Origin: Bacteroidota bacterium
GTDB lineage: Bacteria; Bacteroidota; Bacteroidia; AKYH767-A; OLB10
DNA: 64,000 nt
Direction: 5' to 3'
Assembly (NCBI GenBank): GCA_016699635.1
Contig: CP064983.1
Coordinates: forward strand, 1,980,048 to 2,044,047
Positions 1,745 to 16,547 of the stretch are shown here, piece by piece. Every line of letters begins with the position of its first letter. Position 1 is the first letter of the stretch. The position numbers and the translations under genes were made by a program. Below the pieces are notes generated by a model. It was not told where the DNA came from. It ran no database searches and saw only the letters and a list, made by a program, of their open reading frames with translations.

Positions 1745-1842
1745 GTACCCGCGAAGCTCCTGCTTCGTGGGATAAATGCATAAAAGCTGTGCTTTGCATT
1801 ACATGGTGTTAAGTACCTAAAAGCTGTGCTTTGCATTACATG
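1745..1842 (+). repeat. REP copy (GTACCCGCGAAGCTCCTGCTTCGTGGG) plus 25-bp direct repeat at RAYT 3' end
   Basis: 1745-1771 is the exact reverse complement of the hairpin in array units 4 and 5. TAAAAGCTGTGCTTTGCATTACATG occurs at 1781-1805 and 1818-1842. Confidence 0.9.
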
Positions 1843-2387
1843 CTCAACACTTTAACGGGGCTGTTCTCATTAGCGCTACTTAACCGCCACAAATGCGGTT
1901 CATCTACAAAACCGGCTTCCACCGGGTTGTTATGTATGTAATTTATTTTTTGATCTATTATCCTGTTGCTATATAATTCAAATGCATGATTGTTATGTTG
2001 CCAAAACTGCCTGTATTGTTTATGGGGTGATATTTTACCATAATATTTAAATTCTTTAATTAGCCACTCACGTCTGCTTTCAAGCATATTTTCTTCTATG
2101 GCATCCATAAGTTTTTTTGACGAAAAGGCTTTCATATCACGTATCAGGTCATTCAATATTCCTTCTTTCCTTTTGGCAATAATGTGAACATGACTTGGCA
2201 TTACACAATAACAATACAGTTGCAAGCCTTTGTCTTGTTGGCAGTAGATTAGACTATTAATTAGTATATCCTGATAAACTCTTCTTGTAAATATATCTAA
2301 CCAGCCCACAGTGGTAAAAGTTACAAAGTATAACCCTCCAGGAAATGTTTTATATGTTTCTGACATTATATATTTATGTTTATACAA
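1836..2387 (-). CDS. REP-associated tyrosine transposase (RAYT, Y1/HUH family)
   Basis: LYFVTFTTVGW N-terminus, HUH motif (MPSHVHII), FWQ…H, YIHNNPVEAG (catalytic Tyr region), WRLSSA; flanked by palindromic repeats. Confidence 0.9.
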   Translation of the reverse strand: MYKHKYIMSETYKTFPGGLYFVTFTTVGWLDIFTRRVYQDILINSLIYCQQDKGLQLYCYCVMPSHVHIIAKRKEGILNDLIRDMKAFSSKKLMDAIEENMLESRREWLIKEFKYYGKISPHKQYRQFWQHNNHAFELYSNRIIDQKINYIHNNPVEAGFVDEPHLWRLSSANENSPVKVLSM

Positions 2388-2595
2388 ATGTTGTAATTTT
2401 ATTTATAATGTTGTTCATTGGTGTTCAAAGCACAGCTTCTATACACAAAGCACGAAGCAGGAGCTTCACGGGTACAGTTCATTGCTGTTCGAAGCACAGC
2501 TTCTAAACACAAAGTACGAAGCAGGGGCTTTGCGGGTACGGTGTTGTTCAATGCTGTCTTGTCCTGAAATAGGTTTACACTAAAAAGTGTAAAAC

Positions 2596-3042
2596 ATGGA
2601 TAAAAAAATCATTCAAAAAGCGGGTAAGTATTTTACCGTAGAAGAAAAACACAAGATCATTCAGGAGTTAATTTCAGCCCAATGCACCAAAGTGGAAATT
2701 TGGGAAAAATACACAGGTGAAGTTGAAGAGCACGGACAGCTTCTTAGATGGATGCGGCAGTTAGGGTATAACACCGGAATTAAAACAAGAAGACCTAACA
2801 TTGTATCAAATTTATATTCGATGGCACAAAAGAGAATTAAGTCTGATAATCCCGATAGCTATCGGGAGGTTAAAGTAGGAGATGAATCTTTTGAAAACCT
2901 GCAATTAAAGAAGCGAATAGCTGAATTAGAAAAGCAATTAAAGGATGCAGAATTAAAAGCAATTGCCTTTTCCACGATGGTAGATATTGCAGAAAAGGAG
3001 TTTAAAATTCCAATCAGAAAAAAGCTCAATACCAAACCATAG
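2596..3042 (+). CDS. IS3 OrfA (HTH + coiled coil)
   Basis: N-terminal HTH-like segment, coiled coil LKKRIAELEKQLKDAELK; A6G motif at 3018-3024 near its end. Confidence 0.85.
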   Translation: MDKKIIQKAGKYFTVEEKHKIIQELISAQCTKVEIWEKYTGEVEEHGQLLRWMRQLGYNTGIKTRRPNIVSNLYSMAQKRIKSDNPDSYREVKVGDESFENLQLKKRIAELEKQLKDAELKAIAFSTMVDIAEKEFKIPIRKKLNTKP

Positions 3043-3047
3043 AAGCA

Positions 3048-3970
3048 ATGAAAAACAACTTTGCACACATAGGATTAGCCAAGTTATGTGGATGGTTTGG
3101 TATCACCAGACAGGCTTATTATCAAAACAACTGGGAAGGAGTTTCAACTACCCTGGAAGAAGATTTGATAATACAAAGGGTAAAGGAAATTCGTAAAAAC
3201 CATCGTAGAATGGGCACACGAAAACTGTATGAAATGCTGCAACCATTTATACTAGAACACCAAATAAAAATAGGTAGAGATGCCTTGTTTAACATGCTTT
3301 CAGCAAATCATTTATTGGTGAGAAAACGAAAGCGGAGAATACAAACAACTAACTCTTTTCACTGGTTGCGGAAGTATCCAAATCTCATTCGTGAGTTTGT
3401 TCCTACAGCACCCAATCAGCTTTGGGTGAGTGATATTACCTATTGGAAGATAAGCACTGGAGAACATCTTTACATCAGTTTTATTACCGATGCTTACTCA
3501 CATAAGATTGTTGGCTATCAGGTAGCCGAAACAATGGAGACTATTGAAAGTATGCAAGCCTTGCAAATGGCTCTTTCTGCTTTGGGGCAAAGAGTCATTT
3601 GAATCTCATCCATCACAGCGACAGAGGCATTCAATATTGCAGCCATGCTTATGTAAAGCTATTGCAGGACTACAATATAAAAATAAGCATGACTGAAAAT
3701 GGCGACCCTTTAGAAAATGCTGTAGCTGAAAGAATAAACGGAATTATTAAAGAAGAGTATTTAGAAACTTATGATGTTGATAACCTCAAAGATGCAAAGG
3801 GTTTACTAAAAGCTGTAGTGGATCTATATAACAACGAAAGACCTCACATGAGCATCAGTAACTTTACACCAAACAGCATTCATCATTCAAAAAGTAAAAT
3901 TAAAACAGAAAGATTATGGAAGAATTATTATCGAAAAATTCCTACTATTGTAAACCCAATTCAGGACTAA
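3048..3970 (+). CDS. IS3 OrfB DDE transposase (rve integrase core; frameshift in G-run ~3583-3588)
   Basis: PNQLWVSDITY, IHHSDRGIQY, NAVAERINGIIKEE, YNNERPH. One extra G joins the two ORFs. Confidence 0.9.
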
Positions 3971-4871: not shown

Positions 4872-7800
4872 ATGATAACTAAAAATCAAACAAAAAAACG
4901 AACGTCTTTAACAAGACTATTTCTTTGTCTGACAGCTTTAATTATGCTGTGGACAACGGGCGCACAGGCGCAAACTACTGTTACCATTGGTAGCGGAACA
5001 GGCACAAGTACTTATTAGTACTTTATTACTTTTATGACTTTAGCTACACGCAACAAATTATTTATGCCTCTGACATTACCTCAGGTGGCTGGGGTGGTGG
5101 ATCTGGATTGATTACCAAAATTCGTTTCAAGCCTAAAAACAATGTTGCAAGCACTGCAAATTGGAAAGACTGGGTGATTTATATGGGTAATACAACTAAA
5201 ACTACCTTTACTTCTACTACTGATTGGATTATGCCTGGAAGCATGACAACGGTTTTCAATGCTTCAATTCCATCAAGTTTAACTGCAAATGTATGGATGG
5301 AACTGACTTTGAGTACTCCTTTTTTATGGGATGGAACAAGTAATTTAGTTGTTGCAGTTGATGAAAATGTTGATGCATATGGTAGCAGTCCTAATTGGGC
5401 AGGTTATGCGCCAGGAGCAAATAGGGGGATTTATTTTTACAGGGATAATGTAGATGTTCTTCCTGCATCACCCCCTGCAGGTACGAGAAATGGAGCAGCA
5501 ACAAATGTTGCACAAATGCAATTAGATATTACTTCTAGCGTACCTTGTGCCGGTACACCTACACCCGGCACAGCAAGTTCCTCTGTTAACCCTGTATGTC
5601 AGAATAATGCAACCAACCTTGTTCTAACTGGTTATTCTTCCGGACTTGGAATCACATACCAATGGCAAACATCAACAACACCGGGTGGCCCTTATACAGA
5701 TATTAGTGGTGCTACTACAACTACTTATTCTTATTCTCCTGCAACTGCAGGAACAGAATATATAGTTTGTAAAGTAACCTGTACTAATAGCAGCATGGAT
5801 GCATTGTCAAATGAAGTAACCTTAGGGGTAAATGCTTCACCAAGTGGCACGGCAACAGGTCCTGCAACGTTAGTTACCTATCAGAACGGTACTTTTTCTG
5901 TTACAGGTTATCCGGTTGGAACAACATTCCAATGGCAATCGTCTACGGCAAGCTGTGCAACAGGTTTTAGTAATATTCCGGCTGCAACTGCAGATAATGT
6001 ATTGCTAAATTCAAGTGCAGGTGGCACATTCTACATCCGTTGTATGCTAACCAATGCAGGATGCAGTGCACCTTCTAATTGTGTTACCCTGGTAGTAACA
6101 GTTGCAGGAAATAATGTATGTTCTGCAAATACTTTAAATGTAGGTGTTAATGGCCCATATACCAATGTGGGTGCCACTGTAGAAACAGGTGAGGTTGCAC
6201 CTCCTGCAGCTGGTTGCAGCGTGCAAAACGGATGGTGTAACTCAACATTGAGTAATACAGTATGGTTTACTTTTACACCACCTGCAAGTGGACAGTACTC
6301 ATTCCGTTTGGATCCATCACGCACGCTTTGGGATACACAGTTTGCTTTGTGGAATGCATCTTCATGCTCGCCATTTGGAGGCTTTACGATGTTTGCAGCT
6401 AATGATGATTCCTTAAATTCACCATTCAATTCATATATAGCACCTGTTTGTTTAAATGCAGGACAGACCTATTACTTTCAGTTTGATGGTTATAGTGGAA
6501 CAAACAACAACTGGGGCATTTTAGTAACACAGGTAAATACAGTTACTGCAGGCATCAGTGGCTCGCAAACAGGCTGCAGCGCTGTTAACTTAACAGCTAC
6601 AGGCGGCAGCACCTATTTGTGGAGTGGTGGTTTAACACCAAATACAGATGCCAACACTTTCACGGCTTCAGGTCCCTATACAGTAACAGTTACTTCAGCT
6701 CAGGGATGTACATCGCAGGCAACTGCTAACGTTGTAATCAACGTTCCTTCAACAGACCCCGGATCAGCCACCAGCAATGCACCGTTTGATAACATTTGTG
6801 CAGGAGGCAATGTAACCTTATCTGTTGGTGGTGGTACATTAGGTACCGGAGCCCAGTGGCAATGGTACAGTGGTTCTTGTGGAGGCACACCTGTAGGTTC
6901 AGGCAGCAGTATAACCGTTTCTCCTTCTGTTACTACAAATTATTTTGTACGTGCAGAGGGTGTTTGTGGCAACACCATGTGTGTCTTTATTACCATTACT
7001 GTTAATACAGGCATACCAGCACAGGCAGTAACAATTCCAATTGTTGGATTACCTGCTTATGCCTGCAATGCTACAGCAGCTACATTAAGTATTCCTGCAG
7101 TTGCCAATGCAACATTCTATACATGGGATGGCCCTACAGGAACAACATTCGATGGTTTTCCATCACCTTATTCTTCTTTAGCACCAACAGTAAATGTTGT
7201 ATTTGGTAATCCAAACGGCTCAGGTTATAGAATAGGCGTACAGGCAGGTAATGCATGTGGAAGTTCAGCGCGTAAGAGTGAGTGGCTGCGTGGTATTGTT
7301 AGCACTCCTGCAGCAGTAAGCGGAGTAACAACAACATGTGCAAGCACTTCAGGAACCTATACAACAGGACCGGTAGATGGAGCAACATCATATCTGTGGA
7401 CTATTACAGGCGATGCCTCAGTAATTGGCACCGGTACCAGTGTTACAGTAAACTTTGGTCCTGCATGGGCTGGTGGTACACTGTGTGTAAGAGCACAAAC
7501 ACCATGCTACACATCACCATCTAAGTGTCTTGTTATTGGAACTTCTGCATCACCATTAAATACCATCAGTGGCCCATTGTCAGCATGTCCAAATGATGTA
7601 TTGACCTTTAGTGTACCTGCATCATCAGGCGCAGCAAGCTATGCATGGACAGTACCTGCAAACTCCAGTATTTCAGGTGGAGCAGGAACAAATTCTATTC
7701 AGGTAACTTTTGCACCGAACTATAACAACTTAGGCAATATTTGTGTGAATGTAACAAGCATTTGCGGTGTTACATCAGCAACCAAGTGCAGAACGGTAGC

Positions 7801-8590
7801 ACCTGGAGTTCCATCAGTACCTGCCAGTATAACAGGAGCAACAAATGGTTTGTGTGGTCAAAGTATCAGCTACAGCACACCATTTAGCCCCGGAACAACT
7901 TATAACTGGACAGCACCCGGAACAATTACCGGAAATGGTAATAATGCAGTAAGCATTGCTTATGGTTCATTCACTACAGGTCAGGTATGCGTAACAGCAA
8001 GCACAGGTTGTGGCACAAGTGCTGCACGTTGTGTAGCTATTAAAGGAGCACCAAACTCACCAATAGCAATTACAACATCACCTGCAAGCTGGTGTGCAAA
8101 CACATCTGGCGTAGAGTTTAATGCCAATGTAAGCAACACAGCCGGTTCTTATACCTTGTCATGGACATATCCATCAATGCCTGTAGCAAATTATGTTTCA
8201 GGAGGTGGAAACACTGGACAGTTAATCCTTGATTGGGGAACAGGAAACGGAAACATTACCGTTACTGCAACTAACAGTTGCGGAGCCGGTTCTAAGGCTT
8301 ATGTAGCTACAATAGGTTGTAGAGAAGGACAATTGGCTACGGCTAATAGTCTGAATGTATATCCAAATCCAACAGCAGGTGTGTTGAATGTAGAATACAC
8401 AGCAGAGAAAGGCACAGCACAAGTAACAGTGCTTGACTTGAGTGGCCGTGTAGTAATGACACAGACACATGCCAATGCAGCAGGACAAAACACATTGCAA
8501 CTTGACCTGAGCAAGGTAGCTAAAGGCGCATACATGCTGAATGTACAAACCAATGGCAGCAACAATCAGGTGAGAGTGGTAGTGGAGTAA
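4872..8590 (+). CDS. T9SS type-A cargo protein, ~1240 aa: adhesin-like N-domain, Ig/PKD-like repeats, CTD (frameshift ~5012-5018)
   Basis: ATG 4872 gives signal peptide …LWTTGAQAQ. One missing base joins it to ORF 5108-8590. C-terminal YPNP…LDLSGR…GAYML…VVVE sorting domain. Confidence 0.85.
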
Positions 8591-8635
8591 AAGTTTAAAG
8601 ATTGACAATTTAAAAAGATTGTCAGAAAATTAAAG

Positions 8636-8667
8636 GGGAGAAGTCGAAAGGCTTCTTCCATTTTTTT
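8636..8667 (+). terminator. Intrinsic terminator (GAAA loop)
   Basis: GGGAGAAGTC-GAAA-GGCTTCTTCC followed by AT7. Confidence 0.75.
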
Positions 8668-8867
8668 ATTTATAAATTACTATAAGAAATTAAAAATCGC
8701 ACTTACCAAAAATTTAATCAATTGATGTTAAAAAGCGTTACATCTTGCTGTTTTTATTAATAAATATTACAGAATTATTAGAAATGTTACGTGCTAATTA
8801 AAACATTGATAATCAATAATAAAGTGATATTTATAATATATAACAGAAGATTTTATTTTAAAAATAA

Positions 8868-8899
8868 TTTGGAATATTAAAAAATGATGAATAATATTG
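8868..8899 (+). promoter_or_regulatory. Candidate primary-sigma promoter for second giant gene
   Basis: TTTG 8868-8871, 20-nt spacer, TAATATTG (one mismatch to TAnnTTTG). Confidence 0.45.
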
Positions 8900-9042
8900 A
8901 AGGCGAAAACCAAACTTATATGCTGTTAAAAAGACGAGTGCTAACTACAATTTGTAATTATTTTTCACAACAACGGCAGAATTAGTTTTTGAAAATCAGA
9001 AAACAAAATCAAAACATAAGTTAAACCAAAAATCAAATTATC

Positions 9043-12000
9043 ATGACAAAAACACAGTACAACAGTAAAGCAAAGTCTGCTTCATTCTGGAGGTGGATTA
9101 TGTGTTTCATGTTCCTGCTTGGAATATGGACTACGGGCGCACAAGCGCAAACAACAGTAGCGGTAGGTCCTACTACTGTATCAGCAAGTAGTTACTTCTA
9201 TGGACCTGTTTATAGGTCATCTGCATCTAGTACATTTCATTATTCAATGTACAGCTATATCTATAGTGCTTCGGAAATAGCGGCAGCAGGTATAGTAAGC
9301 GGAAGTTTTATTAATGACATCCAGTTTAATTTAAATGCAGCAGCTACATTAAGTGGTGCGCATACTGGAAATTTTGAAATCTGGATACAAAACAGCAGTG
9401 CAACAGATCAAACCTCAGGCACTTCTTGGTCCACAATAACAGGTACAGCAACGCAAGTAGTTGCGCAAACCTGGAATAACACAAATCCCGGTTCCGGTGG
9501 TTGGAAAACTTTTACTTTCAATTCACCTTTTGCGTACACAGGTCAATCATTAATTGTTTCTGTACGATGGGTATTAATCCCTTCAGGAGGATCACCTTAT
9601 GCAAGTGGTGCATTTAACTGGCAATATTATACGGGTCCATTAATAACACCTGCAGCAATTGGTGCAGCAAGTGGTTCAGCTCAATCGGGTAGCACTGCTT
9701 TAAGTACAGTATCATATGGTGGAAACAGACGTCCATTGACACAAATGTCTTATACAGCCGGCTCTCCTTGTTCAGGAACCCCAACTCCGGGTAATACAAA
9801 TTCTAATCCTACATCTGCTTGTGTTGGTCAAACAATATCATTATCACTGCAAAATCTAACTATGGGCTCAGGGGTAACTTATGATTGGCAAAACTCACCT
9901 GATGGTGTTACATGGACAAGTACAGGTGGTACATTACCAACTTATTCTACCACACAAGTTGCATCTACCTGGTATCAATGTGTTGTTACTTGTACAAACA
10001 GTGGATTAAGTACAACCTCCACTCCTGTTCAAGTTAGTATGAATCCATTTTATAGTTGCTATTGTGACCCAACTTATTCTTCTGGCACTGGATTTGGAGA
10101 TTATATTTCATTAGTGGCAATTCCAACAAGAACCTTAAATAATCCAACAACAGGAGCACCTTCACCTTACTTTACAGTCTATCCGCAATCAGGAAATACA
10201 ACATGTTCACTTGTAGCTGGTGCAAATTATACAATGAATGTTGCCGGTGGTACTTATTCATCTTGTTATATAAGAGGTTGGATTGATTATAATCAGGATG
10301 GTAATTTTGATGCATCAGAAACTATTGGCGTTTCTGGTAATGTTGGTTCACTAACCACTGGAAGTTTTAATTTTATTGTGCCGGTAACTGCTTTAACCGG
10401 TACTACCAGAATGAGAATACGTTCAAGTGATACTTCACCAGGGCCATCAAGTTCGCAAGTATGTGGAGCAGCCAATAGCACTTATGGTGAAGCAGAAGAT
10501 TATTTAATAACTTTATTAGCAGCAAATGCTTGTACAGGAACACCTGCAGCATCAGCAACTACAGCATCAGTAAGCGGAGTATGTTCAGGTGGTAATGTTG
10601 ATCTTGCAACAAACCCTGTCTATACCGATGGCGGCTTGACATTTGACTGGCAGAGTTCACCTGATGGAATTACTTATTCTTCAACAGGAGTTACAACACA
10701 GACTTACAATGTAACTGGATTTTCTGCAACAACATGGTATCAATGTGTTGTTACTTGTACAAACAGTGGATTAAGTACAACTTCAACTCCGGTACAGGTT
10801 TTATTGAATTCATTCTACAATTGTTATTGTGCATCTATTGCTACATATACAGGCGATGAAGATATATTTAACGTAACATTCGGAACATTAAATAACACTT
10901 CAACATGTTCAAGTACCGGTCCCGGTGTCGGCTCTGTGAACCAGCGTTATGCAAACTATGCCAGTGGCACAGGAGCACCGGCTGCACCTAATGTTATCAA
11001 GGGTTCAACCGTACCTTTCTCTGTTCAGATAGGTACTTGCGGAAGCAACTACAGTAACATGACCAAAATTTACATTGACTGGAATCAAAATGGTTCTTAT
11101 GCCGATGCCGGAGAAGAAGTTTATGTTTCTCCAACATATACAAGTGGTCCACACACAGAAACCGGAAATATTTTAATCCCGATGACTGCTGTTGCCGGAA
11201 CTACAGGAATGCGTGTAATTACAGTTGAAACAACTTCTGCCTCAAGCATTACGCCTTGTGGTTCCTATGGATGGGGCGAAACAGAAGATTATTTGGTTAA
11301 TGTTATTCAACCTGTACCATGTAGCGGGGCACCTGCACCGGGTTTAACTGTTGCAAGTGTAAATCCTGCATGTTTGGTTAATCCTTTAGTTTTAAGTCTG
11401 CAAAATCCAATGACCGATGTAGGATTAACATTTAATTGGTTAACTTCTCCTGATGGTGTTACCTGGTCTTCTACAGGTGTAACAACTTCAACATTGACAG
11501 TTAATCAGTCAGCAGCTACTTATTACATGTGTGTTGTTACATGTACCAATTCAGGGCAATCAGGAAACTCTACTGCATTATTGGTTAACCAAACGGTTTG
11601 TTATTGTGAAACTCCTGTATATAGCTACAATTCAGGCTACAATATGTGTACTTATTATGATTATATTGGAAATGTAACATTTGCAGGTATTAATAACACT
11701 ACTGTCTGCGATAATACGCCTCCATATTATAATTATTATTCATCACAAACAGCAACGGTTAACAGAACAGGAAGTTATCAGGTAACAATTTCTGCAACAG
11801 CCGGTGGCGCATCATTCCAATTGTATAAAGTTTATATTGACTACAATGACAATGGTAGCTTTGATGATGCAGGTGAAATGGTTTACACTTCAGGTTTCAT
11901 CAGTACTGCAACTAACTTTACTCAGGGAAATATTGTTATTCCAATGACTGCTCCATTAGGTACACACCGTATGAGAGTTAGATCAACAAATCCATTAAAT

Positions 12001-15000
12001 ACAAACATTGATGCCAATTCTTGTTCGGATGATGGTTATCTTGGTGAAGTAGAGGATTATAATATTGTAGTTAATCCTGCACCTCCTTGTAGCGGTACAC
12101 CGGCACCGGGTGCTACATTATCTGATAAAGCACTTGTTTGTTCATCTACAACAATTAACCTGAGTTTGCAGAACGCTACTCCGGGTACAGGTGTAACTTA
12201 TCAATGGCAGTCAGCAGTTGATGTTGCATTTACCACTCCGGTAAATTTGGGTACAGCTGCAACACAAACAGCAACACAAACAGCAACAACATATTATCGT
12301 TGTCTTGTAACTTGTAGTGGTAACACCGGAATTTCAACTCCGGTATTAGCAACATCAACAACTGCATGTTACTGCACCAATCCCACAACCGGTAGTGATG
12401 GTTGTGCTCTTGGTTTGTATATCAACAATGTAACTTTTGCAGGTATAAACAATACCAGTGGTTGTTTTAGTGCAGTACCATATACAACACCATTCTATAG
12501 CTTCTTCCCAACCCAGTTGGCAACAGCGCAACAAGGTAATACCTATGCTTTCTCTGCTTCTGCACCAAACAATCCCGGCTCATACTATCAATGGTATGGT
12601 GTTTGGATTGATTATAATGACAACGGAAGTTTTGACGATGCCGGTGAATTGGTGTTGTCAAGTATTGCAGGAGCTTCAACAACCAATAATCAACTTACAG
12701 GAAATATTACCATTCCTTTAACTGCTACAGCTGGTCAACACCTGATGCGTGTTAGAACCGGTAATGTATCAGTTGCAATCAATTCATGTTCTGACAACTC
12801 TGTAAGTGGTGAAGTAGAAGATTATCTGATTGATATTATTGCAGCTCCACAGTGTTCAACGCCTGCACCGGGTAATACAATAGCATCAGCTACTTCTGTA
12901 TGTGCAAATGAGAACTTGGATTTGAGTTTGCAGAATAATAATATCGCATTAGGTTTATCTTATCAATGGCAGGTATCTACAGTTGGTGCCAGCGGACCAT
13001 GGACAAATGTGGGTACAAACGCAAATACCTATACTGCAACACAATCGGTTGCCTCCTGGTATCAGTGTATTGTTAGTTGTTCTTATACAAGTATTTCTAC
13101 TACTTCTACACCTGTTGGTGTAACAATGAATTCTGTTGCCAGTTGTTATTGTGTAGCAGGAGCTTCTATAGATGGTTGTGGAACAGGTAATGAGTATGTG
13201 AGTAATGTAACATTTAACACAATCAATAACACATCAACATGTTCTGGTGTTGCACTGCAGTATCAGGATTTCACAGCAATTTCAACGAATGTTCAGGCTG
13301 GTCAATCTTATACAGCTTCTGTAATGATTACAAACTATTTCTCAAGTGATCAGGCAACAGTTTGGATTGACTTTAATCAGAACGGATCCTTTGCAGATGC
13401 AGGTGAGCAGTTTAATCTTTCAGGCGGTGCATCTGGTGTAGCATTTACAGGAAGTATAACTATTCCCGGAAATGCAGTTACAGGAGTAACAAGAATGAGA
13501 GTTCGCGGAAATTATTCCGGTGCAATGAACCCATGTGGTATTACATCTTATGGTGAAGTAGAAGACTATAGTCTGAATATTACACCACCGGTATGTATTT
13601 TTGCACCAACTTATCCTGCAGATGCAGGAAGTGCATGTCCTGATGCCATTACCAATACAGTTCAGTTAAGCTGGCCATCTTTACCTGCAGCTACAGGTTA
13701 TGACGTGTATTTCGGCACAAACAATCCTCCAACAACAGTTGTATCTCCAAATCAGCCGGGTTTAACTTATGTTGCTAACGTAACTAGTGGAACACAGTAT
13801 TACTGGATGATAGTACCACAAATGCCGGGCGGAGGAACCTCATGTAGCGTATGGTCATTTACAGTATCACCACCACCTATGCCTATAGCAAGTTCAGGAG
13901 GCGATGTGTGTGAGGGCAGTGACATCTTCTTGTCGGCAGACAATGTAGATCCCGGTCAGTTAACGGGCAACACCTATTCATGGACGTATCTCAATAGCTT
14001 TAGCAGCGCCTTACAAAATCCATCTATCAACAGCCCAAGCGCAGCCTATAGTGGCACCTATTCAGTAATAGTAACGAATCAGTATGGCTGTACGGCAAGT
14101 GCAAGCACCAGCCTGAGTGTAAACCCAAATCCAACGATAACAATAGATTCAGTACAGAATGTAAGTTGTTTAGGCGGCAGTGATGGTATTATTTACGTAT
14201 CAGGATCAGGAGGCTTAGCACCCTATAGCTTCACGTCAGATTTTGTGAACTTTAACGCAACAGGAGTGATGAATAATTTGCCTACAGGGTCAAGTATTAT
14301 TTATGCTGCAGATGGCAATGCCTGTCAGGCACAGATAACGGGTAATTTAACAGCGATAAGCACGGCACCACCATCACAATCGGTAGTTGTAACACCAACG
14401 ATTATAGGCATGCCAGCCTATGCCTGTCCGGGTACTACGGCAAACTTAAGCATACCTGCAGTTCCCGGTGCAACGAAGTATATCTGGGATGGCCCATTCG
14501 GTACCTTCTTTAATGGTAATCCGATGAACCAGTCGCCATATACAACAACAACACCAAGTGTGCAGATAACGTTCAGTTCATCAACAACATCGTTTGTAAA
14601 TGTAGGAGTACAGGCAGCCAATGGCTGCGGAGCATCACTGCGTAAGATCCAGAAGGTTAGATATCAGATAAGCACCCCAAAGGAGATTACCGGAGCAACA
14701 ACAATGTGTGCCAGCACTAATGGAACATATACGATAGCCCCTGTAACAGATGCCACAAGTTATCAGTGGATGATAACAGGCAATGCCACAGTAGTGCCCA
14801 GTGGCACCTCAGCAGTAGTGTTCTTTGGCCCAAGCTGGAATGGAGGCACGTTATGCGTAGCAGCCAAGACACCATGCTATACTACAGCGTATAAGTGTAT
14901 AGCCATAAGTAAGTCGGCCTCAGCATTGAATGCTATCACTGGTCCATTGTCATCATGTCCAAACGAGGTACAGACCTTTAATGTACTACCATGTACAGGA

Positions 15001-15955
15001 GCAGCGAGCTACAACTGGACGTTACCGGCAGGAGCTACCGGCAGTTCATCAACAAACAGCATCACAGCCACGTTTGGTCCAACGTTTACAGCAGGTGGCA
15101 ACATCTGTGTAAGTGTTACAAGCATCTGTGGAGTAACCTCAACACCTAAGTGCAGAACGGTAGCTCAAGGCTTGCCATCAGTACCGACAAGCATCAGTGG
15201 CATCACCAATGGATTGTGTAATCAGAGTGTGAACTACACAGTACCATCATCTCCAGGCGTTACGTATAATTGGACAGCACCCGGCACAGTAATAGGTAAT
15301 GGCAACAGTTCCGTAAGTGTTACTTATGGAGCATTAACAACAGGTCAGTTGTGTGTAACAGCGAGCAACAGTTGTGGCACAAGTGCAGCAAGATGTACAC
15401 CACTGAAGGGAAAGCTCAAACTCACCGATTGCATTAACAGCCATACCTGCAAGCTGGTGTGCCAATACACAGGGCATAGAGTTTACAGCAGACTTAGGTA
15501 ACACAACAGGTTCTTATACATTATCATGGGGCTATCCATCGGCACCAACGGCAAGTTATGTAGCAGGTGGAGGAAACTCCAATGCACTAACGTTGGATTG
15601 GGGCACAGGCAATGGCTCGGTAGTAGTAACAGCGACAAACAGTTGCGGAGCAGGCTCCAAAGCTTTTGCAGTGACCATAGGATGTAAAGAAGGTGAGATG
15701 GCAAAAGCCAATCAGTTAAATGTATATCCAAACCCAACAGCAGGCGTGTTGAATGTAGAATACACAGCAGAGAAGGGCACAGCACAGGTAACAGTGCTAG
15801 ACCTTAGCGGCCGTGTAGTAATGACACAGACACATGCCAATGCAGCAGGACAAAACACATTACAACTAGATCTGAGCAAGGTAGCTAAAGGAGCGTACAT
15901 GTTGAATGTACAAACCAATGGCAGCAACAATCAGGTGAGAGTGGTAGTGGAGTGA
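9043..15955 (+). CDS. T9SS type-A cargo protein, ~2300 aa: 5 GEVED domains, FN3-like, SprB-type repeat, PKD-like cassette, CTD (frameshift ~15410-15420)
   Basis: Five GE(A/T/V)EDY motifs; SCLGGSDG…GGLAPY SprB-like repeat. After the shift the frame reads NSPIALTAIPASWCANT…, homologous to gene 4872-8590, through to the CTD. Confidence 0.88.
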
Positions 15956-15976
15956 TTTTTGGTTAAATAAATTGCT

Positions 15977-16010
15977 AAGGGGCAGTGCGAAAGCACTGCC
16001 CCTTATTTTG
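15977..16010 (+). terminator. Intrinsic terminator (GAAA loop)
   Basis: Perfect AAGGGGCAGTGC-GAAA-GCACTGCCCCTT hairpin. Confidence 0.85.
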
Positions 16011-16022
16011 CCTTATACTTTA

Positions 16023-16547
16023 ATGATGAATGATAGAATAAAAATATTAAAGGCAAATTTGAATGATACAACAGCATTATCAGTGATAGCTGCAACTACT
16101 TTTTATGATACTTATGGTGCTTACAATAAGCAGGAAACGATACAACGTTATATAGATAAATGGTTCAGCACTTCGCAAATGTGTAAGGAGTTATCAGATG
16201 ATAGAATAATTTATTATCTTGTTTACGATCAACAACAACTTTCCGGCTATATAAAATTACAATTTGTAAACCCACATCAAAATAGTGATTTAAATGGCGT
16301 GGAGTTGAGCAGACTTTATTTGTTGAAACAATGGCATGGCAGTGGCGTTTCCGAAGTCATGTTGAATCATTGCTATAAGATTGCTGAAGAGTTGAAGCAG
16401 GATGCAATTTGGTTGTCTGTGTGGGAAAAGAATAATAGAGCAATACGTTTTTATGAAAAACATGGATTTGTTAAGAAAGGCAATCTGATATTTAAGATGG
16501 ATGATGAAGACCAAAATGATTTTTTAATGGTAAAACATCTGATTTAA
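16023..16547 (+). CDS. GNAT N-acetyltransferase (PaiA-like)
   Basis: ELSRLYLL..WHGSGV, IWLSVWEKNNRAIRFYEKHGF; start placed after the upstream terminator. Confidence 0.85.
   Translation: MMNDRIKILKANLNDTTALSVIAATTFYDTYGAYNKQETIQRYIDKWFSTSQMCKELSDDRIIYYLVYDQQQLSGYIKLQFVNPHQNSDLNGVELSRLYLLKQWHGSGVSEVMLNHCYKIAEELKQDAIWLSVWEKNNRAIRFYEKHGFVKKGNLIFKMDDEDQNDFLMVKHLI

Follow-up and report, generated by a model that had tools for sequence, protein, structure and literature searches.

Two tandem genes, W1 and W2, in a 64,000-nucleotide (nt) stretch of a Bacteroidota genome (contig CP064983.1, positions 1,980,048 to 2,044,047; hereafter the window) end in copies of one C-terminal domain (CTD), a type-A sorting tag of type IX secretion systems (T9SS). 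The two copies are identical in protein and differ in DNA at silent sites only. We conclude that this silent-only pattern is probably explained by gene conversion between paralogous genes combined with strong purifying selection on the tag. The source genome, G000, is a metagenome-assembled genome (MAG) of a sludge Bacteroidota, a single 3.25-Mb contig with a GC content of 36.5%. Its sequence was found again in many activated-sludge metagenomes, and the genomes related to it are MAGs of uncultured Bacteroidota.

Window positions 8351-8590 and 15716-15955 (240 nt each) both translate to LNVYPNPTAGVLNVEYTAEKGTAQVTVLDLSGRVVMTQTHANAAGQNTLQLDLSKVAKGAYMLNVQTNGSNNQVRVVVE followed by a stop. Counting and translation confirmed an earlier note on this DNA, which had reported the same 79 amino acids (aa) in both places: 14 sense codons (16 nt) differ, 14 of 14 synonymously, and the stop codon is TAA in W1 and TGA in W2. 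Under neutrality, the probability that all differences of this pair would be silent is <1e-8. Both domains scored above the cutoffs of the type-A profiles, with 56.6 and 59.5 bits for PF18962 (cutoff 27) and 48.8 and 54.0 bits for TIGR04183 (cutoff 23), and the profile match lies at the extreme C terminus (residues 1084-1159 of a 1160-aa protein). A scan of the W1 and W2 proteins against NCBIfam returned TIGR04183 alone for the tail, with no match to the type-B profile TIGR04131. The AlphaFold (AF2) model of the CTD is a 7-strand beta-sandwich with a pLDDT of 85-91 across the domain, and Foldseek matched it to the CTD of mirolase (8qb1, TMt 0.73) and to the SprA-bound CTD of NucA (8glk_D, TMt 0.79). 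The domain resembles known type-A CTDs (TIGR04183/PF18962; Porphyromonas gingivalis RgpB, Tannerella forsythia mirolase, Flavobacterium johnsoniae NucA) in its C-terminal place, its length of ~79 aa, its 7-strand sandwich, and its PNP and KGxY motifs, and the cargos resemble known type-A cargos in carrying a Sec signal peptide in a genome that encodes SprA, PorV, and PorU. We found no structural difference from known type-A CTDs; the peculiarity is evolutionary, in that four cargos carry a protein-identical, silently differing copy.

The tandem pair proved real, as the earlier note had it, but does not stand alone. A tblastn search of G000 with the CTD, the source of our copy list, found the identical protein four times, in W1, W2, and paralogues C and D, and a fifth copy with replacements in paralogue E (Table 1). 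A 5'-truncated CTD remnant is located upstream of paralogue C, and no open reading frame (ORF) leads into it. About 60 further type-A CTDs in G000 are mostly 20-45% identical to the W1/W2 CTD, which bears out the earlier assumption that such tags usually diverge between cargos. Pairs among the four copies differ at 4-14 silent and 0 replacement codons, and comparisons with E give 17-22 silent and 5 replacement codons. Altogether, 20 nt sites vary among the four copies, and 20 of 20 are silent. Four more metagenomes, surveyed more loosely, added little power: they gave no new variant in the four-copy cluster, and all replacements seen belonged to E or the remnant.

Purifying selection on the CTD protein is real and unusually strong. 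The probability that all 20 sites would be silent is 4e-13 under neutrality, 6e-4 at an omega (replacement divergence dN over silent divergence dS) of 0.14, and 0.05 at an omega of 0.05. Maximum likelihood (ML, GY94) estimates of omega were 0.001 for the four G000 copies and 0.041 with E included, against 0.140 for five copies in the sister genome G003, 0.182 for four copies in the sister genome G001, and 0.133 overall. The earlier note had inferred such selection and had named, as evidence against it, other CTD pairs of equal invariance. We looked for such pairs, and the selection claim held: paralogous copies of the same CTD in G003 and G001 carry 2-12 replacements per pair at similar silent distance, and an unrelated CTD family in G000 with a dS of 0.14-0.33 carries 5.5-14.5. 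The truncated remnant, compared with the intact copies at a dS of 0.28-0.38, has a dN of 0.13-0.14, and this relaxed sequence is a useful control for CTD constraint.

Selection is only part of the reason for the missing replacements, however. The earlier note had taken it to suggest strong purifying selection and had missed gene conversion, which appears to have made part of it, because amino-acid-variable segments are nt-identical in the four copies and the silent differences are confined to replacement-poor segments. The 20 silent sites are confined to codons 1-31 and 49-63 and spare codons 32-48 and 64-79 entirely, a clustering with P=3e-5 when judged by the share of synonymous sites and P=0.004 when the two largest gaps are permuted. 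In the AlphaFold model, the variant-free segments are strand 4, the beta4-beta5 hairpin, the beta6-beta7 loop, and the last strand. Across an alignment of 16 copies from 4 genomes of the genus, codons 32-48 are the most amino-acid-variable segment of the CTD, and pN/pS between genomes is 0.15-0.45 in the variant-free segments versus 0.02-0.12 in those bearing silent differences. The silent sites also carry a signature of recombination, four-gamete incompatibility: codons 21 and 26 group W1 and W2 against C and D, and codons 59 and 63 group W1 and D against W2 and C. Many of the silent variants in G000 are also seen in copies from other genomes.

Silent divergence drops at the CTD boundary. DNA identity between W1 and W2 rises from ~70% to 93% at CTD codon 1, and similarity disappears past the stop codon. 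Upstream, W1 differs from W2 and D with a dS of 1.6-2.0 and a dN of 0.63-0.65; in the CTD, dS is 0.22-0.33 and dN is ~0 (Fisher P of 2e-8 to 1e-12 versus upstream). The upstream sequence defines three lineages with orthologues in G003: alpha (W1 with the G003 gene at 983k), beta (W2, C, and D with the genes at 991k, 999k, and 1736k), and gamma (E with C6). These are mutually 24-43% diverged in DNA. Between them, dS runs from 1.4 to saturation upstream and is 0.2-0.6 within the CTD (Fisher P as low as 1e-12). The W1/W2 locus is syntenic between G000 and G003, and the 983k gene is 82% identical to W1 over residues 426-1463. We rejected another candidate orthologue of W1, from L001 (UBA6661), as it is the orthologue of E with a misassembled CTD region, and used G003 in its place.

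The CTD loop at codons 40-47 is specific to the genome and not to the lineage. E has the loop of the G000 type with 1 silent difference, and the loop of C6 in G003 is nt-identical to that of the G003 983k gene. Residue 43 is A in 5/5 copies of G000, V in 5/5 copies of G003, and S in G001. Silent divergence of the CTD is ~0.2-0.6 in all comparisons, orthologous or paralogous, which is less than upstream (0.56-1.4) and a little under the value for flanking genes (0.40-0.65).

An explanation by conservation without conversion would have the CTD evolve slowly, the four copies having kept the ancestral protein since the lineages split. Core CTD segments that are nearly invariant in four genomes of the genus would fit this, as would silent sites that toggle in different genomes, yet we regard it as decidedly unlikely. 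The CTD dS between lineages alpha and beta is 5-10x lower than immediately upstream, and protein constraint does not slow silent divergence. The four-gamete incompatibility, the clustering of silent differences around two variant-free blocks, and the loops that are nt-identical between nonorthologous copies of one genome argue against it as well. As a separate observation, the same CTD silent sites toggle across genomes while many never vary, a pattern that might stem from a common allele pool or from a degree of constraint on silent sites.

We therefore favor gene conversion between paralogues under purifying selection, by which the C-terminal stalk and type-A CTD of the family would evolve in concert. 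Short-tract conversion would repeatedly move pieces of the CTD from gene to gene, and as a result all of the CTD would trace back to a much more recent common ancestor (silent distance ~0.2-0.3) than other parts of the genes do (>1). The latest conversion may have made the fast-evolving codons 32-48 and 64-79 nt-identical in four genes. Older differences would remain in the beta-sandwich core, where only silent changes survived because nearly all replacements were selected against. The core constraint presumably comes from the single PorV/SprA/PorU machinery, which must recognize, shuttle, and cleave the tag, and would then reflect general T9SS recognition, not a special partner.

Several points weigh against this explanation. 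The CTD dS of orthologues is 0.26-0.37, somewhat under the flanking-gene baseline of 0.40-0.65 (three well-aligned genes), and part of the drop in CTD dS could be silent-site constraint and not conversion. The core segments carry 0 replacements versus ~4 expected at the genus-level omega (P ~0.01), which leaves room for some extra constraint in G000 beyond the mosaic. The case for conversion draws on site patterns, variant-free blocks, contrasts in dS, and common derived states, and the ML omega values ignore recombination. The sample is small, at 79 codons and four copies, and the case was chosen for its extreme look.

The CTD is the extreme of a pattern that runs through a larger cassette, not a unique island. 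Homology between W1 and W2 reaches ~1.3 kb 5' of the CTD at ~73% DNA identity with many replacements. The C-terminal cassette of W2, an Ig_7/PKD_6 stalk plus CTD, recurs in the dispersed paralogues C (from genome position 1447980, minus strand) and D (up to genome position 2604710) over 2.1-2.5 kb at 90-93% DNA identity, with blocks of 100% identity alternating with diverged blocks. Omega in the stalk is ~0.03-0.1 (NG86 windows), and one 80-codon stalk window has 14 silent and 0 replacement differences. Judged from their sequences, W1 and W2 appear to be members of a giant, T9SS-secreted, adhesin-like surface-protein family with three old lineages and at least five intact members in G000.

The stalk next to the tag gave an observation of its own. 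Over the 54 codons before the linker (window 15407-15715), E differs from W2 by 1 replacement versus ~30 silent differences (dS>2, omega ~0.02); W1 differs in the same stretch at 13/52 residues. Conservation between two old lineages, gamma (E) and beta, is extraordinary in the GCKEGEMA linker and in the CTD-proximal half of the last PKD_6.

The earlier note had suggested that the tag routes its cargos to a dedicated shuttle or anchoring partner, or drives co-assembly. Such a specialized signal, with conversion only the means by which the CTD is kept identical, would fit the four-copy omega, which lies under that of the sister genomes and of other CTD families. It would also fit the derived residues common to all paralogues of a genome (position 43; loop residues 38-48), as coevolution with a species-specific partner predicts. 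The last PKD_6 is likewise genome specific, TATNSCGAG versus xASNxCGTG, in all three lineages, and E and the lineage beta copies share 53/54 residues beside the CTD, just upstream of the linker, despite a dS>2. The genome nevertheless offers little in the way of a partner. SprA (2501 bits), PorV (511 bits, adjoining PorU), and PorU (970+314 bits) occur once each, and a profile search of G000 gave no extra PorV paralogue above the cutoff, with one weak 55-bit PorV/PorQ-like match. The neighbors of W1 and W2 are IS3/IS200-like elements and SnoaL-like, GNAT, transglutaminase-like, and RlmL-like rRNA methyltransferase genes, and among the flanking genes, we found no PorP/SprF-like or other candidate partner adjoining W1 or W2.

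PorV is reported to serve every type-A CTD, and dedicated shuttles are known for type-B CTDs only (PMC12618676). The type-B CTDs of F. johnsoniae with their cognate PorP/SprF proteins (PMC12618676; PMC9143113) are the only documented case of dedicated shuttles and the model behind the suggestion; unlike those, the CTD here is type A by both profile and fold, in a genome with a single PorV and without an adjoining PorP/SprF-like gene. Moreover, paralogous copies in the sister genomes tolerate 2-12 replacements, and the genome-specific states come with common tracts of 15-50 nt (15-30 nt in the last PKD_6), for which conversion alone suffices. We therefore found no support for the dedicated-partner suggestion and consider a specialized signal unlikely.

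A related possibility, to which we give a similarly small probability, is that uniformity itself is selected, such that the cargos of one cell must show exactly the same tag, the beta4-beta5 loop and the CTD-proximal half of the last PKD_6 both being species specific. We keep it because of the replacement deficit in the core, the pre-linker conservation between E and lineage beta, and the genome-specific residues that span lineages. If it were true, these parts would coevolve with a saturable, species-specific step, either recognition by PorV, PorU, or the attachment complex or homotypic packing of stalks on the surface. Selection would then favor the fixation of tracts that homogenize the amino-acid-variable segments, and the tags would form a functional subclass within type-A CTDs.

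It might also be asked if silent divergence is itself selected, keeping the protein while lowering homologous recombination, and hence deletions, between the CTD repeats. The tandem W1 and W2 are the most silently diverged pair (16 nt), with longest identical runs of ~50 nt. This distance, though, is confounded with lineage (alpha versus beta), and many of the silent variants are common to other genomes and therefore old, not newly selected. In G003, the tandem beta1 and beta2 genes share 99-100% identity across 1.2 kb, and 97% in the CTD; tandem identity is tolerated there, which contradicts selection for silent divergence between tandem repeats. We rejected this explanation as very improbable.

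Since the assembly shows systematic small errors, we considered that the repeated CTDs of a long-read MAG might be chimeric or miscalled. This is essentially refuted. Short Illumina unitigs of independent sludge metagenomes reproduce the CTD sequences of W1 and W2 with 0 mismatches (for W2, unitigs over 15703-15838 and 15809-15953), and the variant combinations of W1, W2, and C are exact in such data. In the Illumina data, the CTD is joined to several different flanks on both its 5' and its 3' side, and errors would not be expected to be exclusively synonymous.

Neither W1 nor W2 is one ORF as assembled. In W1, which starts at ATG 4872 with a predicted Sec signal peptide, MITKNQTKKRTSLTRLFLCLTALIMLWTTGAQAQ (read by eye), the signal peptide is out of frame with the body; the shift lies at 5017-5019, and the main ORF lacks a signal-peptide start. 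In W2, the N terminus MTKTQYNSKAKSASFWRWIMCFMFLLGIWTTGAQAQ is likewise a predicted Sec signal peptide (read by eye), a 2152-aa frame stops at 15501, and the CTD is encoded in a different frame, open from 15407, with the shift at 15412-15416; four PKD_6 repeats are within the 2152-aa ORF, and the fifth is in the CTD-bearing frame. These apparent frameshifts are long-read consensus errors and not pseudogenization, because Illumina runs read both sites in frame. At 15409-15422, the assembly has GGGAAAGCTCAAAC and 4/4 independent Illumina sludge runs, including one metatranscriptome, have GGGAGCACCAAAC, which gives in-frame LKGAPNSP. At 5016-5020, the assembly has TAGTA and all three Illumina DNA runs covering the site have TGGCCA, in frame. 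Metatranscriptome contigs cover both W1 and W2, and both genes are intact and transcribed in these independent data. One of the indels of paralogue C is not present in Illumina contigs. We accordingly rejected a reading as pseudogenes or silent cassettes, which the out-of-frame W1 and W2 and the fragmented paralogues C, D, F, and H had raised: Illumina contigs are in frame at both window sites and at one site in C. Also dropped were ORFs that overlap the CTDs in antisense on the minus strand (8222-8608 and 15483-15785), as the copies do not agree in them and it is the sense frame that is constrained.

Small consensus errors recur systematically in the assembly and give rise to frameshifts and to TAG codons in frame; such a TAG is seen in PorU and SprA too. 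Several errors lie at GGCC or GCACC motifs (true TGGCCA becoming TAGTA, and true GAGCACC becoming GAAAGCTC), and GGCC is depleted in the assembly, with an observed/expected ratio of 0.46. This looks like methylation-related miscalling of long reads. The W2 stop reads TGA in the assembly, but three independent Illumina runs (X2, X4, and X5) have TAG there, from strain variation or a further consensus error. Apparent pseudogenes of this MAG are untrustworthy, and the frameshifts and in-frame TAGs of its T9SS genes are consensus errors.

In run X16, a contig agrees with W1 until 4972 and then continues into another N-terminal domain (VSYSNNFNAN..., resembling the G003 alpha orthologue). The assembly's W2-like N-domain is missing there; the N-terminal cassette has been replaced at the strain level. 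Remnants of IS200-like and IS3-family transposases lie just 5' of W1 at window 1836-3970 (rve split into 3048-3602 and 3599-3970). G003 is without an insertion sequence at that place and has three tandem family genes (alpha, beta1, and beta2); G000 has two family genes, followed by the GNAT gene (15972-16547).

Table 1. Positions of the genes, CTD copies, CTD segments, and assembly error sites (window coordinates unless marked as genome)
Feature	Position	Strand	Description
Gene W1 (lineage alpha), ~1239 aa	4872..8590	+	Predicted signal peptide, N-terminal domain resembling that of W2, Ig_7, five PKD_6, type-A CTD (Pfam/NCBIfam)
Gene W2 (lineage beta), ~2303 aa	9043..15955	+	Predicted signal peptide, five GEVED, Ig_7-like domains, five PKD_6, type-A CTD
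W1 type-A CTD	8351..8590	+	79 codons + TAA; PF18962 E=3e-15, TIGR04183 48.8 bits
W2 type-A CTD	15716..15955	+	79 codons + TGA; PF18962 E=4e-16, TIGR04183 54.0 bits
CTD codons 32-48	W1 8444..8494; W2 15809-15859	+	Strand 4, hairpin, start of strand 5; zero nt differences in four copies
CTD codons 64-79	W1 8540..8587; W2 15905-15952	+	End of strand 6, loop, last strand; zero nt differences in four copies
C-terminal cassette of W2	13557..15955	+	Ig_7/PKD_6 stalk + CTD; blastn, MAFFT identity profile
Paralogue C CTD	genome 1448216-1447980	minus	tblastn, 100% protein identity
Paralogue D CTD	genome 2604474-2604710		tblastn, 100% protein identity
Paralogue E	genome 989702-996994		CTD copy with 5 replacements
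Paralogue F			CTD 58% identical
CTD remnant, 5'-truncated	genome 1455953-1456087	minus	Upstream of paralogue C; no ORF leading into it
Consensus-error sites	5016-5020, 15409-15422; L077 491-492, 955-956, 1013; genome 275928-279270 (PorU), 717190-724290 (SprA)

Concerted evolution by gene conversion under purifying selection is known from bacterial multigene families, such as the duplicated tuf genes and surface-protein families. The CTD shares with them the derived states common to the paralogues of one genome, the mosaicism of tracts, and a low omega. It differs in that conversion here is bounded by a secretion-tag domain, with the remaining sequence of the lineages saturated at silent sites. 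The closest precedent among T9SS cargos is the rgpA/kgp/hagA family of P. gingivalis, paralogues with common C-terminal adhesin modules and a conserved CTD, whose combinatorial modularity has been ascribed to recombination or gene conversion (PMC5266723). The P. gingivalis repeats are identical in DNA, as from recent exchange, whereas DNA identity among the G000 copies is 93-98%, all differences are silent, and tracts of older and younger age form a mosaic; the exchange in G000 is the older one and has been filtered by selection. The domain families differ as well, PKD_6 and GEVED here versus cleaved-adhesin and DUF2436 in P. gingivalis. The CTD of W1 and W2 is probably a case of a known mechanism, concerted evolution with purifying selection, in a family of T9SS cargos and not a new mechanism.

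This family offers a clean natural example of a T9SS tag as an exchangeable module, copied among highly diverged cargo genes and then fixed in protein. It marks the CTD positions that are essentially immutable (strands 1-3 and 5-6) versus those that are free (the beta4-beta5 hairpin and the beta6-beta7 loop), a map that serves the design of CTD reporters and the prediction of cargos from their CTDs. It also calls for caution in such predictions, as CTD similarity between cargos may come from conversion and not from common routing.

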